Source: Escherichia phage Phi1. Taken from it: a DNA stretch of 64,000 nt. The stretch lies in sequence record EF437941. One strand, 5' to 3'. This document shows positions 2,108 through 60,382 of the stretch, in pieces. Position 1 is the stretch's first letter; each line of letters opens with the position of its first letter. The position numbers and the translations under genes are program-made. The notes beneath the pieces were generated by a model. The model searched no databases, had not been told where the DNA came from, and was given only the letters and a program-made list of their open reading frames with translations.

Positions 2108-2141
2108 CCAAAACGAAAAAGCCGACCCTTTCGGATCGGCT
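2108..2141 (-). terminator. intrinsic terminator after nrdD
   Basis: GC hairpin AGCCGATCCGAAAGGGTCGGCT followed by TTTTTCGTTTT on the minus strand. Confidence 0.7.
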
Positions 2142-2146
2142 AAAAA

Positions 2147-4009
2147 TTACATGTGCTTAACGCGGTTTACCATCTCGGAGTGTTTCCCGTGGTTAAATGG
2201 ACGCAGATCAACAGATCCAAGATATCCACTAACGCGACGGATAACATTCATTTTTTCCAGATTATCATTGCCGCAATCAGGACAAACAAAACCAGTCTCG
2301 GTCGCTCTCATTTCCTTAGTAGATCCGCATACATGACACACATCAGAAGGAGTATTAACACCGAAGTAGTGCAATTTATCCATTGCATAGTCTACTACAG
2401 TTTCAAGACCTTTCAGGTTGTTTTTCATGTCTGGGAACTCAACATAAGAGATCATGCCACCGGACGCCAGCCAGTGATAATCTTTCTCAAAGTCGATTTT
2501 CTCAAATGGAGTGACTTTCCGGTCTACGTCGAGGTGGAATGAGTTGGTGTACCAGTCTTTATCGGTAGCGCCCTTAACAATACCAAATTGCTCTCGGTCC
2601 AGTCGATTAAATCGATAGCAAAGGCTCTCGGCTGGCGTACCGTAAAGACTAAACCCAAGTCCGGTTTCGTCCTTCCATTTTTCAGTATAATGACGCAAGA
2701 TCTTAAGAATATGTTTACCGTATCGCTGCACATCTTCCGAATCAAACGGATGAACACCAAACAGGACGCTCAATACCTCATGTAAACCAATATATCCAAG
2801 AGAGATACTAGCGCGACCATCTTTCAGCACTTCAAAAATTTCATCGTTTTGATGAATACGGAAAAATGCACCTTCGGTATACAGTACAGGAGCAACATTG
2901 GCTTTAGCCCCTTTTAAAGCGTCTACGCGACTCATGAGCGCATCAAAGCAAATAGGCATACGATTAGCTAGCTCTTGTTCGAATAGCTCAATTCTGCGCA
3001 TTACAGACGCTTTACCAGCACGACGCGCGGCAATAAGGGCAATACGCGGAAGATTCAGAGTCACAACACCTAAGTTATTACGTCCGTCTAATACTTCTTC
3101 GCCTTTCTCATTATGCCACACACCCAGGAAGCTACGACAACCCATCGGGCTAACCGGAACACTAGATCCAGTGATACTACGGTTATTCTTCGCAGAGATA
3201 TAATCAGGGGTAAGACGCTTACTAGAACATTCCAATGCAAGTTGCTTAATGTCGTAGTTCGGATCTTCCGGGTTAAGGTTTAATCCTTCTTCTAAGAACA
3301 TCACCAGCTTAGGAAACACCGGAGTTATACCATCTTTACCTAAACCTTTAGTTCGAACTTTCAGGATCGCTTTCTGAATCAGTTTTTCTTCCCAGCTAGT
3401 ACCCATACCAAATGTTAAAGTCACAAAAGGCGTTTGACCGTTGGTGGAGAACAAAGTGTTGATTTCATATTCCAACGCTTGATACCCGTCTAGCGTTTCT
3501 TTTTCTGTCTTCTCTTGTGCATAGAGAGTATCAGCTTTGATTCCGTAGGTTTCGGCATCAGCAAGGTGTTTATGATATGTTTTCTCAACATACGGTGCTA
3601 ACACCTGATCGATGTTTGCAATTGTGGTCCCGCCATATTGATGACTTGCCACCTGTGCGATAATTTGAGCGGTTACAGCACAAGCAACACCGATCGATTT
3701 AGGACTTTCGATTTGTGCGCTACCCAATTTAAAACCATTCTCTAACATGTCTTTGAGATTAACAAGACAGCAGTTAGTAAACGGCATAGCGGGTGCATAA
3801 TCCATATCATGATAATGAATATCACCGTCTACATGCGCTTTATAGATGTGCTCAGGTAACACGGTTTTAGCAATCTGTTTAGACACAGCGCCAGCAATCA
3901 GATCTCGACGTGTCGGGAATGTTCGCGCGTCTTTGTTCGCGTTCTCTTTGCTTACTTCGTTTTCTTTACCCGTTGCGATCTCTGTAATGTCTTTGATTAG
4001 TTTTTCCAT
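2147..4009 (-). CDS. nrdD: anaerobic ribonucleoside-triphosphate reductase (class III, glycyl radical enzyme), uninterrupted
   Basis: 620 aa; C-terminal glycyl radical motif RVSGYLG and Cys-x2-Cys zinc ribbon (CHVCGS, CPDCG); single continuous ORF, no intron. Confidence 0.95.
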   Translation of the reverse strand: MEKLIKDITEIATGKENEVSKENANKDARTFPTRRDLIAGAVSKQIAKTVLPEHIYKAHVDGDIHYHDMDYAPAMPFTNCCLVNLKDMLENGFKLGSAQIESPKSIGVACAVTAQIIAQVASHQYGGTTIANIDQVLAPYVEKTYHKHLADAETYGIKADTLYAQEKTEKETLDGYQALEYEINTLFSTNGQTPFVTLTFGMGTSWEEKLIQKAILKVRTKGLGKDGITPVFPKLVMFLEEGLNLNPEDPNYDIKQLALECSSKRLTPDYISAKNNRSITGSSVPVSPMGCRSFLGVWHNEKGEEVLDGRNNLGVVTLNLPRIALIAARRAGKASVMRRIELFEQELANRMPICFDALMSRVDALKGAKANVAPVLYTEGAFFRIHQNDEIFEVLKDGRASISLGYIGLHEVLSVLFGVHPFDSEDVQRYGKHILKILRHYTEKWKDETGLGFSLYGTPAESLCYRFNRLDREQFGIVKGATDKDWYTNSFHLDVDRKVTPFEKIDFEKDYHWLASGGMISYVEFPDMKNNLKGLETVVDYAMDKLHYFGVNTPSDVCHVCGSTKEMRATETGFVCPDCGNDNLEKMNVIRRVSGYLGSVDLRPFNHGKHSEMVNRVKHM

Positions 4010-4021
4010 TGTATCACCTAT

Positions 4022-4044
4022 GAAAAAGCGGGATTTTCTCCCGC
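4022..4044 (-). terminator. intrinsic terminator-like hairpin immediately upstream of the nrdD RBS
   Basis: GCGGGAGAAAATCCCGC plus TTTTT on the minus strand. Confidence 0.55.
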
Positions 4045-4054
4045 TCGTTGATAG

Positions 4055-4549
4055 TTATTTTACCAGTTCTGCTAATTCTTTTTCTTTAGCTTCCAGTTCA
4101 GCCTTAAGCTGTTTAATCTCTTGTCGCTTCTTATTAGCGGCTTCCTGCTTACTATTTCGGATAATCTGATCTAGATACAACTCCCAATCCTGAATATTTT
4201 TGATAATATAACCGTCAACATTAATTGGTCGGATATTTAGTACAGCTTCCAGTTTAGTCGCAAAAACTTTAATTGCTGGTGTGAAGTATTCATATTCGTT
4301 ATCTTCAAACCAATAACCTAGACTTGCATTCTCAATGCGAAGACGAAGTTCAAGATCAAGGTCTTTATCTTCGGTGTAAAGATCTTGCACATGTCCCATC
4401 GAGCTAACAACAACTTTAAAACGAATTTTATCAACACCACCAAACACATCAGTAAGGATACCAGCAATTGAGCTATTAGCGCAAGATTGGTCGCTGAATG
4501 CGTCAAGGTTTTCTTTAGTTACAGTATACCAAACATCTTGTACCCACAT
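4055..4549 (-). CDS. hypothetical protein
   Basis: ORF behind stem-loop promoter ~4580-4607 with GAGAGGA RBS; C-terminal coiled-coil-like K/E-rich tail. Confidence 0.55.
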   Translation of the reverse strand: MWVQDVWYTVTKENLDAFSDQSCANSSIAGILTDVFGGVDKIRFKVVVSSMGHVQDLYTEDKDLDLELRLRIENASLGYWFEDNEYEYFTPAIKVFATKLEAVLNIRPINVDGYIIKNIQDWELYLDQIIRNSKQEAANKKRQEIKQLKAELEAKEKELAELVK

Positions 4550-10623: not shown

Positions 10624-10652
10624 AGTATAGGGGATACGTGATCCCCTGTCAA
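10624..10652 (-). promoter_or_regulatory. early promoter with stem-loop in spacer (PeSL-like)
   Basis: TTGACA-GGGGATCACGTATCCCC-TATACT. Confidence 0.6.
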
Positions 10653-12946: not shown

Positions 12947-12982
12947 CCAAAAAACAAAAAAGGCTATCCCGAAGGATAGCCC
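12947..12982 (-). terminator. intrinsic terminator after the gp38-like gene
   Basis: Hairpin GGCTATCCTTCGGGATAGCC followed by TTTTTTGTTTTTT on the minus strand. Confidence 0.7.
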
Positions 12983-16390: not shown

Positions 16391-16458
16391 AAGTCATTCC
16401 CCCAGATTTAAAATATTCAGTTATATTTATAATCTGGGGCTTTATTTATGATTAACTC

Positions 16459-21273: not shown

Positions 21274-21308
21274 TAAAACGAAAAAGCCAACCCTTTTCGG
21301 ATTGGCTT
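21274..21308 (-). terminator. intrinsic terminator after the GrcA-like gene
   Basis: Hairpin AAGCCAATCCGAAAAGGGTTGGCTT plus TTTTTCGTTTT on the minus strand. Confidence 0.7.
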
Positions 21309-36251: not shown

Positions 36252-36544
36252 TGGCTGGATTATCCTACGATAAAGCTAAAACTACAGGGCACGGAAACTA
36301 CCCACCTACTGTAATTAATGCAACTCAATCTAAGGTATTTGTTGAGGGTATCCCTGTATTAGTCGAAGGAGACCCAATTACACCACATACAAAAACAACA
36401 AAGCCTTATGATACACACGGGGGAACTACGGTCGCCAGTACCCCGAAAGTATTTGTTACCGGAAAGAAAGCAATTCAAATGGCAGATCGTATTAGCTGTG
36501 GCGATACCGTCGCTATGGCATCACCGAAGGTATTCATAAAATGA
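36251..36544 (+). CDS. 5.4: PAAR-like tail spike tip protein gp5.4
   Basis: 97 aa, immediately downstream of gene 5; size and synteny. Confidence 0.7.
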
Positions 36545-53837: not shown

Positions 53838-56158
<2,321 letters not shown>

Positions 56159-56189: not shown

Positions 56190-58190
56190 ATGACTCTATT
56201 ATCACCGGGTTTCGAAACGAAAGAAACTACTCTCTCCACTACCATTGTGCAATCTGCGACTGGTCGCGCGGCACTGGTAGGTAAATTCCAATGGGGTCCA
56301 GCTTTCCAGATTATTCAAGTAACTAATGAAGTTGAATTAGTTAATAAATTTGGTCAGCCGGATAATAACACCGCAGACTATTTCATGAGCGGGGCTAACT
56401 TCCTCCAGTACGGTAATGATCTGCGTGTTGTTCGTGTATTGAATAAAGAAAAAGCGAAAAACGCAACCGCACTGGCTGGTAACATCGAGTTTGAAATCAC
56501 AAACGAAGGTTCAAACTATGAAGTAGGCGATACCATCAAGATTAAACATAACCGTCAAGATATTGAAACGGCGGGTAAAGTAACTAAAGTTGATGGTGAT
56601 GGTAAAGTTAAGGGCGTATTTATCCCAACTGGTAAAATTATCGCTCACGCTAAAGCAATCGGTGTATATCCAGAACTTGATGGCGATTGGACGGCAGAGT
56701 TCACTTCTTCGTCGGGTAACGGTAGTGCGGCGCTGTCAGTAACGAAAATTGTTACTGATTCCGGTCTTCTGTTAACGGATCTGGAAACTTCCCGCGCCAA
56801 TATCACAAATCAAACTTTCTTGACTAAACTCCAGAAGTATGATATGCCAGCGGTAAGCGCGATCTATGCTGGTGAGATTGGCAACTCGCTGGAAGTTGAA
56901 ATTCTGGCACGTAGTGCGTTTAAGAACACTGCACCAGATCTGACCATGTATCCTTATGGTGGCGAGCGCACCGCAGCACGCAACCTGATTCCATATGCAC
57001 CGCAGAATGATAATCAATATGCATTTATTGTTCGTCGCGATGGTGTTGTGGTAGAATCCTATGTACTGTCTACTCTGAAAGGGGATAAAGACGTATATGG
57101 CAATTCTATCTACATGGACGACTTCTTTGGTCGTGGTTCTAGCCAGTACATCTATGCAACCGCTCAAGGGTGGGTAGATGGTTTCAGTGGTATTATCTCT
57201 CTTGCCGGTGGTGTTTCTGCTAACGAAGCAACGACTGGTGGAGTTGGTGCTGATCCGTTCATCGGTGCGATGATGCAAGGTTGGGGTCTGTTTGCTGAAC
57301 GAGAATCTATTCACGTAAACCTGTTGATCGCTGGTGCATGTGCTGGCGAAGGCGATGCGTTCTCTACCGTACAGAAACATGCTGTTTCCATCGGTGATGA
57401 GCGTCAGGATTGCTTAGTAATGGTTTCTCCGCCACGTAGCACTGTTGTTAATATTCCGGTGACTACTGCAATTGATAACCTGATTGCATGGCGCGAAGGT
57501 TCAGGAAACTATAATGAAAACAACATGAACATTAATACCACTTACGCGGTTATTGATGGTAACTACAAATATCAGTATGACAAATACAACGACGTAAACC
57601 GTTGGGTTCCGTTGGCTGCTGATATTGCTGGTTTGTGCGCTCGTACTGATGCTGTATCCCAGCCGTGGATGAGTCCGGCAGGTTATAACCGTGGTCAGAT
57701 CATGAACGTGGTTAAACTGGCAATTGAGCCTCGCAAGGCGCACCGCGATCGTCTGTATCAGGCTGCAATTAACCCGGTGATCGGTGCTGGTGGTGAAGGG
57801 TTTATCCTGATGGGTGATAAAACCGCTACGACTGTTCCTAGCCCGTTTGACCGCATTAACGTCCGTCGTCTGTTTAACATGCTGAAAAAGAATATCGGTG
57901 ATTCAAGCAAATACAAACTGTTTGAAAACAACGATAACTTTACTCGCGCTTCCTTCCGTATGGAGGTTTCGCAATATCTCAGCACGATTCGCTCTCTGGG
58001 TGGCATTTATGACTTCCGAGTACAATGCGACACCACGAATAACACGCCGGATGTAATTGATCGTAACGAATTTGTTGCTAGTATGTTCATCAAACCAGCA
58101 AAATCGATCAACTATATCATGCTCAATTTCACTGCTGTTGCAACTGGTTCTGATTTTGACGAAATTATCGGTCCAGTTAACCAGGCATAA
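56190..58190 (+). CDS. 18: tail sheath protein gp18
   Basis: 666 aa; late promoter TATAAATA upstream; synteny. Confidence 0.9.
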   Translation: MTLLSPGFETKETTLSTTIVQSATGRAALVGKFQWGPAFQIIQVTNEVELVNKFGQPDNNTADYFMSGANFLQYGNDLRVVRVLNKEKAKNATALAGNIEFEITNEGSNYEVGDTIKIKHNRQDIETAGKVTKVDGDGKVKGVFIPTGKIIAHAKAIGVYPELDGDWTAEFTSSSGNGSAALSVTKIVTDSGLLLTDLETSRANITNQTFLTKLQKYDMPAVSAIYAGEIGNSLEVEILARSAFKNTAPDLTMYPYGGERTAARNLIPYAPQNDNQYAFIVRRDGVVVESYVLSTLKGDKDVYGNSIYMDDFFGRGSSQYIYATAQGWVDGFSGIISLAGGVSANEATTGGVGADPFIGAMMQGWGLFAERESIHVNLLIAGACAGEGDAFSTVQKHAVSIGDERQDCLVMVSPPRSTVVNIPVTTAIDNLIAWREGSGNYNENNMNINTTYAVIDGNYKYQYDKYNDVNRWVPLAADIAGLCARTDAVSQPWMSPAGYNRGQIMNVVKLAIEPRKAHRDRLYQAAINPVIGAGGEGFILMGDKTATTVPSPFDRINVRRLFNMLKKNIGDSSKYKLFENNDNFTRASFRMEVSQYLSTIRSLGGIYDFRVQCDTTNNTPDVIDRNEFVASMFIKPAKSINYIMLNFTAVATGSDFDEIIGPVNQA

Positions 58191-58223
58191 TCAGTAAATT
58201 AGCATAGATTAAAAGTTAAATCA

Positions 58224-58244
58224 AGCGGGGAGAAAATCCCCGCT
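58224..58244 (+). promoter_or_regulatory. conserved GC hairpin between genes 18 and 19
   Basis: AGCGGGGAGAAAATCCCCGCT, no U-tract; near-identical copy at 58771-58789. Confidence 0.5.
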
Positions 58245-58263
58245 CTATTAAGGAATATCAATT

Positions 58264-58758
58264 ATGGCACTCGATTTGAATGATATTACACGCGGTTTCG
58301 AGTCTGGCGATTTTGCTCGTCCTAACCTGTTTGAAGTTGAGATCCCGTATCTGGGGCAAAACTTTAAGCTGATGTGTAAGGCTGCGACTGTCCCGGCTGC
58401 TACCGTAGAAAAAATTGCTATAGGCTATCAAAACCGTAAAATTAACATCGCTGGCGACCGTGTATACGACGACTGGACCATCACTGTATTCAACGATGAC
58501 GCACACAAGATCCGTGATGCTATCGTTGCATGGAGCGATCAGACACACGGCACTGGTTCGGCGATCACTGGTGCAACTCCTGCACAATATAAGAAACAAG
58601 CTATTGTTCGTCAACTTAACCGTAACACCGAATCAACTAGCGAAAAAACATTGTACGGTATTTTCCCTACCAACGTTGGTGAAGTAACCCTCGATTGGGA
58701 ACAAAACAACGAAGTTGAAACGTTTGAAGTTACTTTTGCTATCGATTGGGTAGAATAA
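58264..58758 (+). CDS. 19: tail tube protein gp19
   Basis: 164 aa; synteny. Confidence 0.9.
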   Translation: MALDLNDITRGFESGDFARPNLFEVEIPYLGQNFKLMCKAATVPAATVEKIAIGYQNRKINIAGDRVYDDWTITVFNDDAHKIRDAIVAWSDQTHGTGSAITGATPAQYKKQAIVRQLNRNTESTSEKTLYGIFPTNVGEVTLDWEQNNEVETFEVTFAIDWVE

Positions 58759-58770
58759 ATATATTATCAT

Positions 58771-58789
58771 GCGGGGAGAAGTTCCCCGC
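58771..58789 (+). promoter_or_regulatory. conserved GC hairpin between genes 19 and 20
   Basis: GCGGGGAGAAGTTCCCCGC, no U-tract. Confidence 0.5.
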
Positions 58790-58816
58790 CTAATTTCTCC
58801 CAATTCGAGGTGAATA

Positions 58817-60382
58817 ATGTTTAGTAGATTAAAAATGCTTGCGCGTTGGGCTGATTTTGACAACGACAAATACGAAGAACAAATTAAAGATAAAGCAGAG
58901 TCTATCGCCGCACCTAAAAACAATGATGGTGCTACGGAAGTAGAAATTAATGATAATTTACCTGCTAGCGCGTGGAACTCTCTTACCCAGCAATTTTACA
59001 GCACCGACCAGAAAATCAGCACAACTAAGCAATTAGTTAACACATATCGCGGTTTGATGAATAACCATGAAGTCGAAAACGCTGTACAAAATATCGTTAA
59101 CGATGCGATTGTATTTGAAGAAGGTCATGAAGTTGTTTCATTAAATCTTGAGGCGACTGGCTTTAGTGAATCTGTAAAAGAGCGCATTCATGAAGAATTT
59201 AAAGATCTTTTAAACACTATCCAGTTTGATAGGCGCGGTCAGGATATGTTCCGTCGCTGGTATGTAGATTCGCGTATTTTCTTCCATAAGATCATCGGTA
59301 AAAATCCAAAAGATGGTATCGTAGAATTACGCCAGCTTGACCCACGTAATCTTGAATATGTTCGCGAGATCATTACAGAAGACACACCGGAAGGTAAAAT
59401 TTATAAAGCAACGAAAGAATATTTCATTTACACTGTAGGCAATAGCTCTTATTGCGCAGGTGGTCAAGTATTCTCTCCTAATAGTCGCGTTAAAATCCCG
59501 CGTAGTGCTATTACATACGCTCACAGCGGCTTGATGGATTGTGATGATAAATATATCATTGGTTATTTGCATCGGGCTGTTAAGCCAGCAAACCAGCTTA
59601 AATTGTTGGAAGACGCAATGGTCGTTTATCGTATCACGCGTGCACCGGAACGCCGAGTGTTCTTTATTGATACCGGAAACATGAACAACCGCAAGGCTGC
59701 ACAGCACATGAACTCAGTGGCACAGTCTTTTAAAAACCGCGTTGTTTATGATGCATCGACTGGTAAACTTAAAAACCAGCAAGCAAATCTATCAATGACA
59801 GAGGACTACTGGTTACAGCGTCGAGATGGTAAAGCAATCACCGACGTTACTACTTTACCCGGTGCATCCGGTATGAGTGATATCGATGATATTCGCTACT
59901 TTAACCGTAAATTGTATGAAGCGTTGCGTGTACCATTGTCACGCAGTAATCTCTCCGATGCTAATATGGTGATCGGTGGTGACGGTTCAGAAATTACTCG
60001 CGATGAGTTGGAATTTTCGAAATTCATTAGAACTCGGCAATCACAGTTTTCGGAAGTATTGCGCGATCCTCTGAAATATAATCTGATTCTCAAAAATGTA
60101 ATTACGGAAGATGATTGGGATCGTGAAATAAATAATATCAAGGTGGTTTTCCATCGGGACTCTTACTATACAGAAGTTAAAGACGCGGAAATTTTAGAAC
60201 GTCGAATCGGTCTAATCGAACGTATTACACCTTACATTGGTAAATATTTCTCTAACCAGACAGTGATGCGTGACATTCTGAAATATACCGATGACCAGAT
60301 GGACACCGAGAAGAAACAGATCGAAGAAGAAGCGAACGATCCGCGCTTTAAACAAACTCCCGATGAAATAGAGGATTTTTAA
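58817..60382 (+). CDS. 20: portal vertex protein gp20
   Basis: 521 aa; synteny. Confidence 0.9.
   Translation: MFSRLKMLARWADFDNDKYEEQIKDKAESIAAPKNNDGATEVEINDNLPASAWNSLTQQFYSTDQKISTTKQLVNTYRGLMNNHEVENAVQNIVNDAIVFEEGHEVVSLNLEATGFSESVKERIHEEFKDLLNTIQFDRRGQDMFRRWYVDSRIFFHKIIGKNPKDGIVELRQLDPRNLEYVREIITEDTPEGKIYKATKEYFIYTVGNSSYCAGGQVFSPNSRVKIPRSAITYAHSGLMDCDDKYIIGYLHRAVKPANQLKLLEDAMVVYRITRAPERRVFFIDTGNMNNRKAAQHMNSVAQSFKNRVVYDASTGKLKNQQANLSMTEDYWLQRRDGKAITDVTTLPGASGMSDIDDIRYFNRKLYEALRVPLSRSNLSDANMVIGGDGSEITRDELEFSKFIRTRQSQFSEVLRDPLKYNLILKNVITEDDWDREINNIKVVFHRDSYYTEVKDAEILERRIGLIERITPYIGKYFSNQTVMRDILKYTDDQMDTEKKQIEEEANDPRFKQTPDEIEDF

Follow-up and report, generated by a model that had tools for sequence, protein, structure and literature searches.

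GC-rich hairpins on either side of tail tube gene 19 and before nrdD in an RB49-type phage, and their relation to PeSL stem-loops

Stable intercistronic hairpins with UUCG or GNRA tetraloops were reportedly described for T4 mRNAs by Tuerk et al. in 1988, and the geometry of 5′-terminal hairpins is said to stabilize E. coli mRNAs, as put forward by Emory et al. in 1992. Comparable GC hairpins are found in REP-type elements, which serve as intercistronic stabilizers. The intercistronic tetraloop hairpins of T4 mRNAs have been summarized in a later publication (PMC4371310). For E. coli, another source states that transcript 3′ ends often lie at stem-loops without U-tracts (PMC13613805, citing Dar and Sorek, 2018). 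The locus described here resembles such U-less 3′ stem-loops of Rho-dependent or processed transcripts in having a GC hairpin without U-tract between cistrons that need different expression levels.

Closely related to the present locus are the PeSL (promoter-early stem-loop) cassettes of RB49 and phi1, in whose commonest layout a hairpin forms the spacer between the −35 and −10 hexamers (Arbiol et al., 2010, PMC2839356). In a lacZ reporter, the stem-loop of PeSL211/210, which has no U-tract, lowered expression to about the same extent as rrnB T1, PeSLs were proposed as recombination sites, and nrdD was named as a PeSL-associated gene (Arbiol et al., 2010, PMC2839356). PeSL cassettes sit in hyperplastic regions upstream of ORFans, whereas two of the hairpins examined here lie on the late strand and flank the essential core gene 19 in the virion module.

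The analyzed stretch of DNA (64,000 nt, referred to as the window) is of T4 type and 99% identical to RB49-like coliphages of the genus Krischvirus (ECD7, GEC-3S, RB49). Its closest relative is ECD7, whose complete genome was searched for further copies and in which positions 33722-98637 are collinear with the window.

Hairpins and promoters around gene 19 and nrdD

An earlier note had described two hairpins flanking gene 19 (H1 and H2) and a related one before nrdD (H3), and all three sequences were confirmed at their coordinates (Table 1). H1 starts 33 nt past the gene 18 stop codon, with 5 nt between its end and the Shine-Dalgarno sequence of gene 19, H2 lies 12 nt 3′ of the gene 19 stop codon, and H3 is found 9 nt past the stop codon of its upstream neighbor and directly before the nrdD Shine-Dalgarno sequence. 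In the window all three loops are pentaloops. With flanking outer pairs, H3 folds at a dG of −15.3 to −16.6 kcal/mol; the folding z-scores were −3.2 for the H1 spacer and −4.5 for H3.

Table 1. Features of the window and copies of the hairpin stem in the complete genome of phage ECD7. Loops of the ECD7 copies are those of the sense strand, except where another strand is given.
Feature	Record	Position	Strand	Description
Perfect T4-type late promoter TATAAATA	window	56151-56158	+	31 nt before gene 18 start
Gene 18	window	56190-58190	+	tail sheath, 666 aa
Left repeat copy	window	58205-58243	+	contains AAAAGTT (58211-58217)
H1	window	58224-58244	+	AGCGGGGA[GAAAA]TCCCCGCT; gene 18/19 spacer; 8 bp stem, dG −15.2 kcal/mol
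Gene 19	window	58264-58758	+	tail tube, 164 aa
Right repeat copy	window	58751-58789	+	contains late-promoter variant and H2
A(−13) late-promoter variant AATAAATA	window	58754-58761	+	overlaps gene 19 stop codon
H2	window	58771-58789	+	GCGGGGA[GAAGT]TCCCCGC; gene 19/20 spacer; 7 bp stem, dG −12.9 kcal/mol
Gene 20	window	58817-60382	+	portal, 521 aa
nrdD	window	2147-4009	−	anaerobic ribonucleotide reductase, 620 aa; Pfam NrdD, E 9e-175; downstream of H3
H3	window	4045-4027 (4023-4045 including T-tail)	−	AGCGGGA[GAAAA]TCCCGCT then TTTT; 7 bp stem
Unnamed ORF	window	4055-4549	−	164 aa; upstream neighbor of H3
Loose copy	ECD7	27200		upstream of gene 47; complete PeSL; loop GAAA
Strict copy (H3)	ECD7	37752		before nrdD; loop GAAA
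Strict copy (H1)	ECD7	92860		loop GAAAA
Strict copy (H2)	ECD7	93406		loop GAAGT
Strict copy	ECD7	115047		between convergent genes (gene 54 side); loop TAA (plus strand)
Strict copy	ECD7	134013		adjoins denA; loop GAAA
Strict copy	ECD7	137308		downstream of nrdA; complete PeSL; loop GAAA
Strict copy	ECD7	153307		between genes 36 and 37; loop TTATC

The near-identity of H1 and H2 goes far beyond chance, as their common pattern is expected only 0.04 times in the window and none of 100 shuffled sequences contained two matches; H3, which is 2 nt shorter and does not match this pattern, stands outside the estimate. Both hairpins are parts of a direct repeat that is longer than noted before, extending over 39 nt at 77% identity.

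As far as the stem is concerned, all three hairpins have what is expected of an intrinsic terminator (7-8 bp, on the sense strand, past a stop codon). The tails differ: UUUUU is directly attached to the stem end of H3, while the 3′ tail of H1, CUAUUAAGG, has 3 U in 9 nt, none of them touching the stem. The tail of H2, CUAAUUUCUC, with CUAA as its proximal bases, is partly U-rich and was flagged by a simple terminator scan. The former statement that neither hairpin flanking gene 19 is followed by a U-tract therefore holds for H1 and only in part for H2, which moreover received a TransTerm score in RB49 (see below). Clear terminators in the window have long U-tracts such as UUUUCGUUUU or UUUUUGUUUU, and no such tail follows H1.

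Some of these structures have been annotated previously. The TransTerm list for RB49 contains H2 as ‘19-->20’ at 89423-89441 with a score of 100 and H3 as ‘nrdD<--RB49ORF057c’ at 36406-36422 with a score of 98, while H1 is absent from that list (Nolan, 2006, PMC1524935, Additional file 6). In GenBank, ‘terminator’ features are placed at H1 and H2 in phage G2248 and at H1 in Ec_Makalu_001 (on the minus strand) and Ec_Makalu_003, and H3 is labeled as terminator in many records. A search of the literature for transcript, 3′-end, 5′-end or long-read maps of RB49-like phages or of T4 late genes found none, and a term search for late-gene products in a T4 RNA-seq table, the first part of which lists early genes (PMC6024815), gave no matches. 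An Rfam scan of positions 58100-58900 assigned no family (best E-value 0.23, 22 bits versus a gathering score of 100). H1, H2 and H3 are real but ordinary hairpins of a kind that is already known.

In the T4 tail, gp18 and gp19 are present in equal copy number (138 each), versus 12 copies of gp20. The single perfect late promoter upstream of genes 18-20 is the one preceding gene 18, which equals the predicted RB49 promoter Pl:86777, and within the window no promoter of its own was found for gene 19 between H1 and the start codon. In line with this, the late promoters predicted for RB49 leave a gap from 86777, ahead of gene 18, to 92358, and the site equivalent to AATAAATA at 58754 is not among them (Nolan, 2006, PMC1524935). 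The A(−13) variant is accepted at 9 of the 50 late promoter sites of T4 (PMC2988020), and RB49 uses it commonly (PMC1524935). The window has four other AATAAATA sites, three of which precede an ORF start by 21-28 nt; for perfect late promoters this distance is 27-33 nt. The predicted +1 of the site at the gene 19 stop is at about 58767, which would put the start of H2 near +5 of a transcript of gene 20, and the leader of 55 nt that would result corresponds approximately to a normal leader plus the hairpin. At the equivalent gene 19 stop site, (T/A)ATAAATA is also present in 44RR, AhFM11, IME523, MX01, Earwig and leB. No leftward promoter above chance was detected near H1 or H2.

Genome-wide copies and loop alleles

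A genome-wide search for further copies had been proposed along with the original observation. In ECD7 there are seven strict copies and a looser one of the stem GCGGG(G)A-loop-T(C)CCCGC (Table 1), two of them within complete PeSLs, so that the hairpin is not tied to gene 19. Early as well as late regions contain copies, which are placed at the ends of genes and whose loops follow the orientation of transcription; sense-strand GAAA is found in the loose copy and in three strict ones, all four among minus-strand genes. A similar bias is seen among the 54 hairpins in ECD7 spacers between co-directional genes, eight of which have GNRA and five UNCG loops on the sense strand, with no antisense equivalent of either loop type in the same set.

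The two complete PeSLs of ECD7 that contain the module (137330 and 27221) read TTGAC-GCGGGGAGAAATCCCCGC-TATAAT and TTGAC-GCGGGGAGAAATCCCCGT-TATACT, so that the −35 and −10 hexamers are separated by 17 nt that make up the hairpin. Twelve PeSLs of this hairpin-spacer subclass are present in ECD7, and the window has three, each of them on the minus strand (26122-26094, 10652-10624 and 954-924). The hairpins studied here share with these cassettes the intergenic location, the stem of a G-run and a C-run, and a stem-loop identical to that of the two ECD7 PeSLs, but they lack working sigma-70 hexamers, and H1 and H2 lie outside hyperplastic regions. At the −35/−10 positions of a PeSL, H1 has ATCAAG and TCTATT (without A at the second position) and H2 has ATCATG and CTAATT, while TTTTTC takes the place of the −10 hexamer in H3; upstream of H2 there is a single chance-level match of 9/12. 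Still, H1 keeps AAAAGTT at the PeSL offset from the stem together with a PeSL-like SD-ATG module, although its flank shows only a modest likeness, consisting of one correctly spaced 8-mer and agreement at 10 of 20 bases upstream, and the upstream flank of H3 resembles that of the PeSL at nrdA. These similarities are suggestive of H1 and H3 being PeSL derivatives that are devoid of the promoter. Since all three hairpins belong to the published PeSL stem-loop family, this family reaches into the conserved late gene cluster.

Loop sequences were surveyed in 57 Krischvirus records of the GenBank phage set. For H1, stem and flanks are essentially invariant, while four alleles of the loop occur. About 46 records have GAAAA; the others are GAAGT, which equals the H2 loop, in JK32, Whisky and MIZ6 (read directly) and in MIZ2, MIZ3 and pEJ01 (deduced from the same two-mismatch identity); GAAA in G2248; and TTTTC, the exact reverse complement, in JSE and Skers. 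All of them fold alike, with dG values from −14.3 to −15.3 kcal/mol. The H2 loop is GAAGT in all surveyed records except JK32 (TTAT). For H3, the loop is GAAA in ECD7, and most records share a length difference of 1 nt relative to the window. The invariance of the stem within Krischvirus is by itself uninformative, because the flanks are near-invariant too (98-99% genome identity). The loop, in turn, is on this allelic evidence a mutational hotspot under weak constraint and not a conserved recognition motif. Slippage and palindrome-mediated inversion are likely mechanisms of the loop changes, and the occurrence of GAAGT in H1 is probably due to conversion from H2.

Gene 19 spacers of other T4-like genera

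For comparison, 13 lineages were examined, including T2/T4, Mosigvirus, Dhakavirus, Jiaodavirus, Kanagawavirus, Pseudotevenvirus, Biquartavirus, a Schizotequatrovirus, Acajnonavirus, Ceceduovirus, phage Ursula and cyanophage S-PM2, with the 18/19 spacers taken from annotated gene boundaries. Both the 18/19 and the 19/20 spacer contain a GC hairpin shortly past the stop codon in 12 of the 13 lineages, S-PM2 being the exception, and the gene 19 loci of marine cyanophage-like genomes have very short spacers that are mostly without hairpins. Across the 13 lineages the mean folding z-scores against dinucleotide shuffles were −2.7 for the 18/19 and −2.8 for the 19/20 spacers. The stems are unrelated in sequence, and the loops are mostly GNRA or UUCG on the sense strand. 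As the hairpins of different genera cannot be aligned in sequence, MAFFT and RNAalifold applied to their 19/20 spacers gave no consensus structure. The presence of unrelated hairpins in the same spacers, together with the predominance of GNRA and UUCG on the sense strand, therefore points to a role at the RNA level that is driven by the stem.

T4 and T2 carry AUGGGGA[GAAA]UCCCCAU after gene 19 and GGCCUGU[UUCG]GCAGGCC after gene 18, in the same spacer positions as H2 and H1. Phage G2248 has an H1 allele identical to the 14-nt core GGGGAGAAATCCCC of the T4/T2 hairpin after gene 19. In contrast to these tetraloops, H1, H2 and H3 of the window have the pentaloops GAAAA, GAAGU and GAAAA and not the extra-stable tetraloops typical of T4; the GNRA form GAAA exists as an allele of H1 (G2248) and of H3 (ECD7). 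The promoter layout differs as well: in T4 each hairpin flanking gene 19 is followed by its own late promoter, whereas RB49-type phages have none at 18/19. Among the other genera, many phages have a late promoter directly 3′ of the hairpin, and in others it lies ahead of the hairpin, at the stop codon of gene 19, like in the window. Searching IMG/VR for GCGGGGA-N3-7-TCCCCGC matched more than 120 unrelated contigs, for which reason the stem alone is not diagnostic; the flank-specific H1 pattern matched two Krischvirus contigs only.

Proposed role and alternative explanations

On balance, and with somewhat better than even confidence, we regard H1, H2 and H3 as copies of one repeated RB49-type module, GCGGG(G)A-loop-U(C)CCCGC, of which H1 and H2 would act via the stem as weak attenuators and transcript-end stabilizers. 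Since the loops show a strand bias and the positions are conserved without conservation of sequence, the module would function as RNA on the transcribed strand, through its stem rather than its loop. In a late transcript starting at the gene 18 promoter, H1 and H2 would fold shortly 3′ of the gene 18 and gene 19 stop codons, respectively, and may represent factor-independent transcript-end elements, being both weak attenuators and barriers to 3′-to-5′ exonucleases, which would delimit and stabilize abundant 18 and 18-19 mRNA segments and lower the flow into the portal gene 20. As gene 19 has no promoter of its own and gp19 is needed in the same numbers as gp18, H1 must be largely read through, and its likeliest role would be to block 3′-exonucleases, to attenuate mildly or to insulate folding. 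H2, whose tail is partly U-rich, would let less transcription pass into gene 20 and shield the 18-19 mRNA at its 3′ end; as it lies at about +5 of the probable variant late promoter AATAAATA, it may also cap the gene 20 mRNA as a 5′-terminal hairpin, provided that this promoter is active. H3 with its U5 tail would be a conventional intrinsic terminator or attenuator before nrdD. The sequences show that the hairpins are present and repeated, how their alleles are distributed, on which strand the loops are biased, that the positions are conserved across genera, and how the promoters are arranged; termination, stabilization and any effect on protein ratios are what we infer from this.

With respect to the earlier note, its general idea of a partial terminator or stabilizer agrees with the anatomy, the public annotation and the comparative data, so that its interpretation is partly supported; a tuning of gene 19 relative to gene 18 is unlikely, given the equal need for gp18 and gp19 and the missing promoter between H1 and gene 19.

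A different explanation would be that H1 and H2 are relics or DNA-level elements, that is, leftovers of duplicated or recombined PeSLs or promoter cassettes with little RNA function beyond providing short homologies for gene conversion or modular exchange. Several observations would fit: both hairpins lie within the 39-nt direct repeat, six phages have the H2 loop in H1 in a conversion-like manner, the inverted loop of JSE and Skers is expected from template switching in a palindrome, the flanks of H1 and H3 still resemble PeSLs but have no working promoter hexamers, HNH genes have inserted into the 18/19 spacer in phiS and Ursula, and PeSLs are proposed recombination sites (PMC2839356). However, homologies of 19-39 nt are short for efficient recombination, and the unrelated hairpins with sense-strand tetraloop bias in the same spacers of most T4-like genera imply selection on RNA structure, for which reasons we consider this explanation unlikely, though worth keeping in view. 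Fairly improbable is the assumption that H1 and H2 are efficient intrinsic terminators which end transcripts after genes 18 and 19, as the TransTerm scores of H2 and H3 in RB49, the GenBank features in G2248, Ec_Makalu_001 and Ec_Makalu_003, and the reporter outcome of the PeSL211/210 stem-loop could suggest. H1 has no U-tract, and the 19 nt that separate it from gene 19 contain no promoter; an efficient stop there would starve the cell of gp19, which is needed at about the copy number of gp18. Efficient termination at H2 would also end transcripts from the putative promoter at 58754, and the canonical terminators of the same phage carry long U-tracts.

That the hairpins act instead on the opposite strand, terminating antisense leftward transcription that enters the late cluster, is very improbable in our view. 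It is true that H1 on the minus strand has nine pairs and a U-rich tail, GAUUUAACUU, placing it at the top of the terminator scan, that it was annotated on this strand in Ec_Makalu_001, and that some sites of T4 are transcribed from both strands (PMC2988020). Yet GNRA and UUCG loops are biased to the sense strand across the ECD7 genome and in the same spacers of other genera, H2 has no U-rich tail on the minus strand, and leftward promoters in the vicinity did not exceed chance. Equally hard to sustain is the view of the earlier note that the shared loop, GAGAAAAT/GAGAAGTT, is a common recognition element; a specific site for an RNase or an RNA-binding protein, with a RegB site or a boxB-like antiterminator site as candidates, is in our view highly unlikely. 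The loops of H1 and H3 are indeed identical in the window, that of H2 differs at two positions, and GGAG is found at the stem-loop junction. But because H1 has four loop alleles in near-invariant flanks, loop-specific recognition is unsupported; the series GAAAA/GAAGT/GAAA/TTTTC in H1, TTAT in H2 and GAAA in H3 among close relatives has, as far as sequence comparison goes, already largely refuted it. Furthermore, the GAAAA loop also occurs on an unrelated stem at 21284-21308.

Individual candidates for such an element were likewise rejected. RNase III substrates are far longer than stems of 7-8 bp, and the hairpins are too short for an RNase III site. The boxB of lambda has a GNRA-like pentaloop (G1, A3, A5), with GAAAA in nutR and GAAGA in nutL. 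The likeness of the locus to a nut site consists of a short GC stem with a GAAAA pentaloop; a lambda-type nut/boxB was dismissed, as no boxA is found upstream, the H2 loop GAAGU lacks A5, and the loops are variable or inverted in relatives. To our knowledge, there is no N-like factor for these phages. The RegB/S1 site is an 11-nt single-stranded GGAGRAYARAA on early mRNAs (PMC1702504), whereas the corresponding sequence of H1, GGAGAAAAUCC, departs from it at positions 7, 9, 10 and 11 and lies inside a −15 kcal/mol stem on late mRNA.

The PeSL211/210 reporter suggests that hairpins of this type can be strong blocks, an outcome that fits badly with read-through at H1. A quite improbable proposal would be that PeSL-type hairpins stop the ordinary sigma-70 RNA polymerase, as the stem-loop of PeSL211/210 did on the reporter plasmid, and are read through by the late gp55/gp33/sliding-clamp complex. 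If true, such mode-selective hairpins would reconcile the strong block in the reporter with the read-through of H1, and late genes would be insulated from early or spill-over transcription.

For biology at large, these findings change little. For annotators of T4-like phages they call for caution, as a ‘terminator’ label on H1 conflicts with the read-through that is needed there. The natural allelic series of H1 (GAAAA, GAAGT, GAAA and TTTTC) constitutes a ready-made test set for the effects of the loop on termination and mRNA stability. The occurrence across genera, at either side of gene 19, of hairpins whose sense strand has a GNRA or UUCG loop suggests that this small gene may be expressed as a structurally delimited mRNA segment.

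Loop alleles and mobile genes in the gene 18/19 spacer

In the 18/19 spacer of JSE and Skers, the loop of H1, the GC hairpin separating the tail sheath gene (18) from the tail tube gene (19), reads TTTTC, the exact reverse complement of the GAAAA found in the window. JK32, Whisky and MIZ6 have at H1 the loop of H2, GAAGT, H2 being the GC hairpin of the 19/20 spacer. The 80-nt flank of H1 is otherwise identical in all these variants. Judging from these alleles, the variation looks like palindrome-mediated loop inversion and gene conversion between the H1 and H2 copies.

In phiS, gene 18 is separated from H1 by an inserted HNH-type endonuclease ORF (444-1043, 199 aa), which has carried in its own hairpin, GGGGGAGGTCAACTCCCCC, and in Ursula an HNH gene (1-471) lies directly upstream of gene 19. 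These insertions identify the 18/19 spacer as an insertion site for mobile genes. In the close relative ECD7, gene 17 is interrupted by an insertion of about 990 bp (88465-89456) that is absent from the window (about 54822); gp17 is annotated with 938 aa in the ECD7 record vs 607 aa in the window.

Further hairpins, PeSL cassettes and the gene 20 ribosome-binding site

The stem of the terminator with a GAAAA loop is unrelated to those of H1 and of H3, the GC hairpin before nrdD. With regard to the promoter-early stem-loop (PeSL) cassettes, the copy at 10652 shares the core TTGACAGGGGATCACGTATCCCCTATACT with the experimentally tested PeSL211/210 of RB49 (PMC2839356).

Features located in the window
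Feature	Position	Strand	Elements
Canonical terminator	21284-21308	-	long U-tract; sense-strand loop GAAAA
Canonical terminator	2120-2141	-	long U-tract; sense-strand loop GAAA
Canonical terminator	12961-12982	-	long U-tract; sense-strand loop UUCG
Complete PeSL	26122-26094	-	TTGAC, hairpin, TATAMT
Complete PeSL	10652-10624	-	TTGAC, hairpin, TATAMT
Complete PeSL	954-924	-	TTGAC, hairpin, TATAMT
Late promoters (n=5)	33271, 44087, 56151, 61741, 62594	+	TATAAATA

Outside the window, a further pair of nearly identical hairpins without a U-tract, GGGGGC[GAAA]GCCCC, occurs in ECD7 at 139627-139646 (-) and 150442-150457 (+), and both members lie within short intergenic spacers and end right at ATGG.

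Within window 58795-58812, UUCUCC, located 5 nt past H2, is complementary enough to GAGGUGA, the Shine-Dalgarno sequence of gene 20, to form a weak helix in the MFE fold, by which the ribosome-binding site of the portal gene could be weakly occluded. Comparable pairing (AUUCC/GGAGAAU) is found in T2 and AV115.

Late promoters and leader length

A 40-nt hairpin (dG about -16.4) at window 16400-16439 (-) contains a perfect late promoter, TATAAATA, in its 5' arm, with ORF 16390-16088 starting 33 nt past this promoter. In Acinetobacter phage Acj9, a late promoter is located in the loop of the 19/20 hairpin. For all five plus-strand TATAAATA sites in the window, the distance to the ORF start is 27-33 nt, a constant leader length that could serve for scoring late promoters in Krischvirus.
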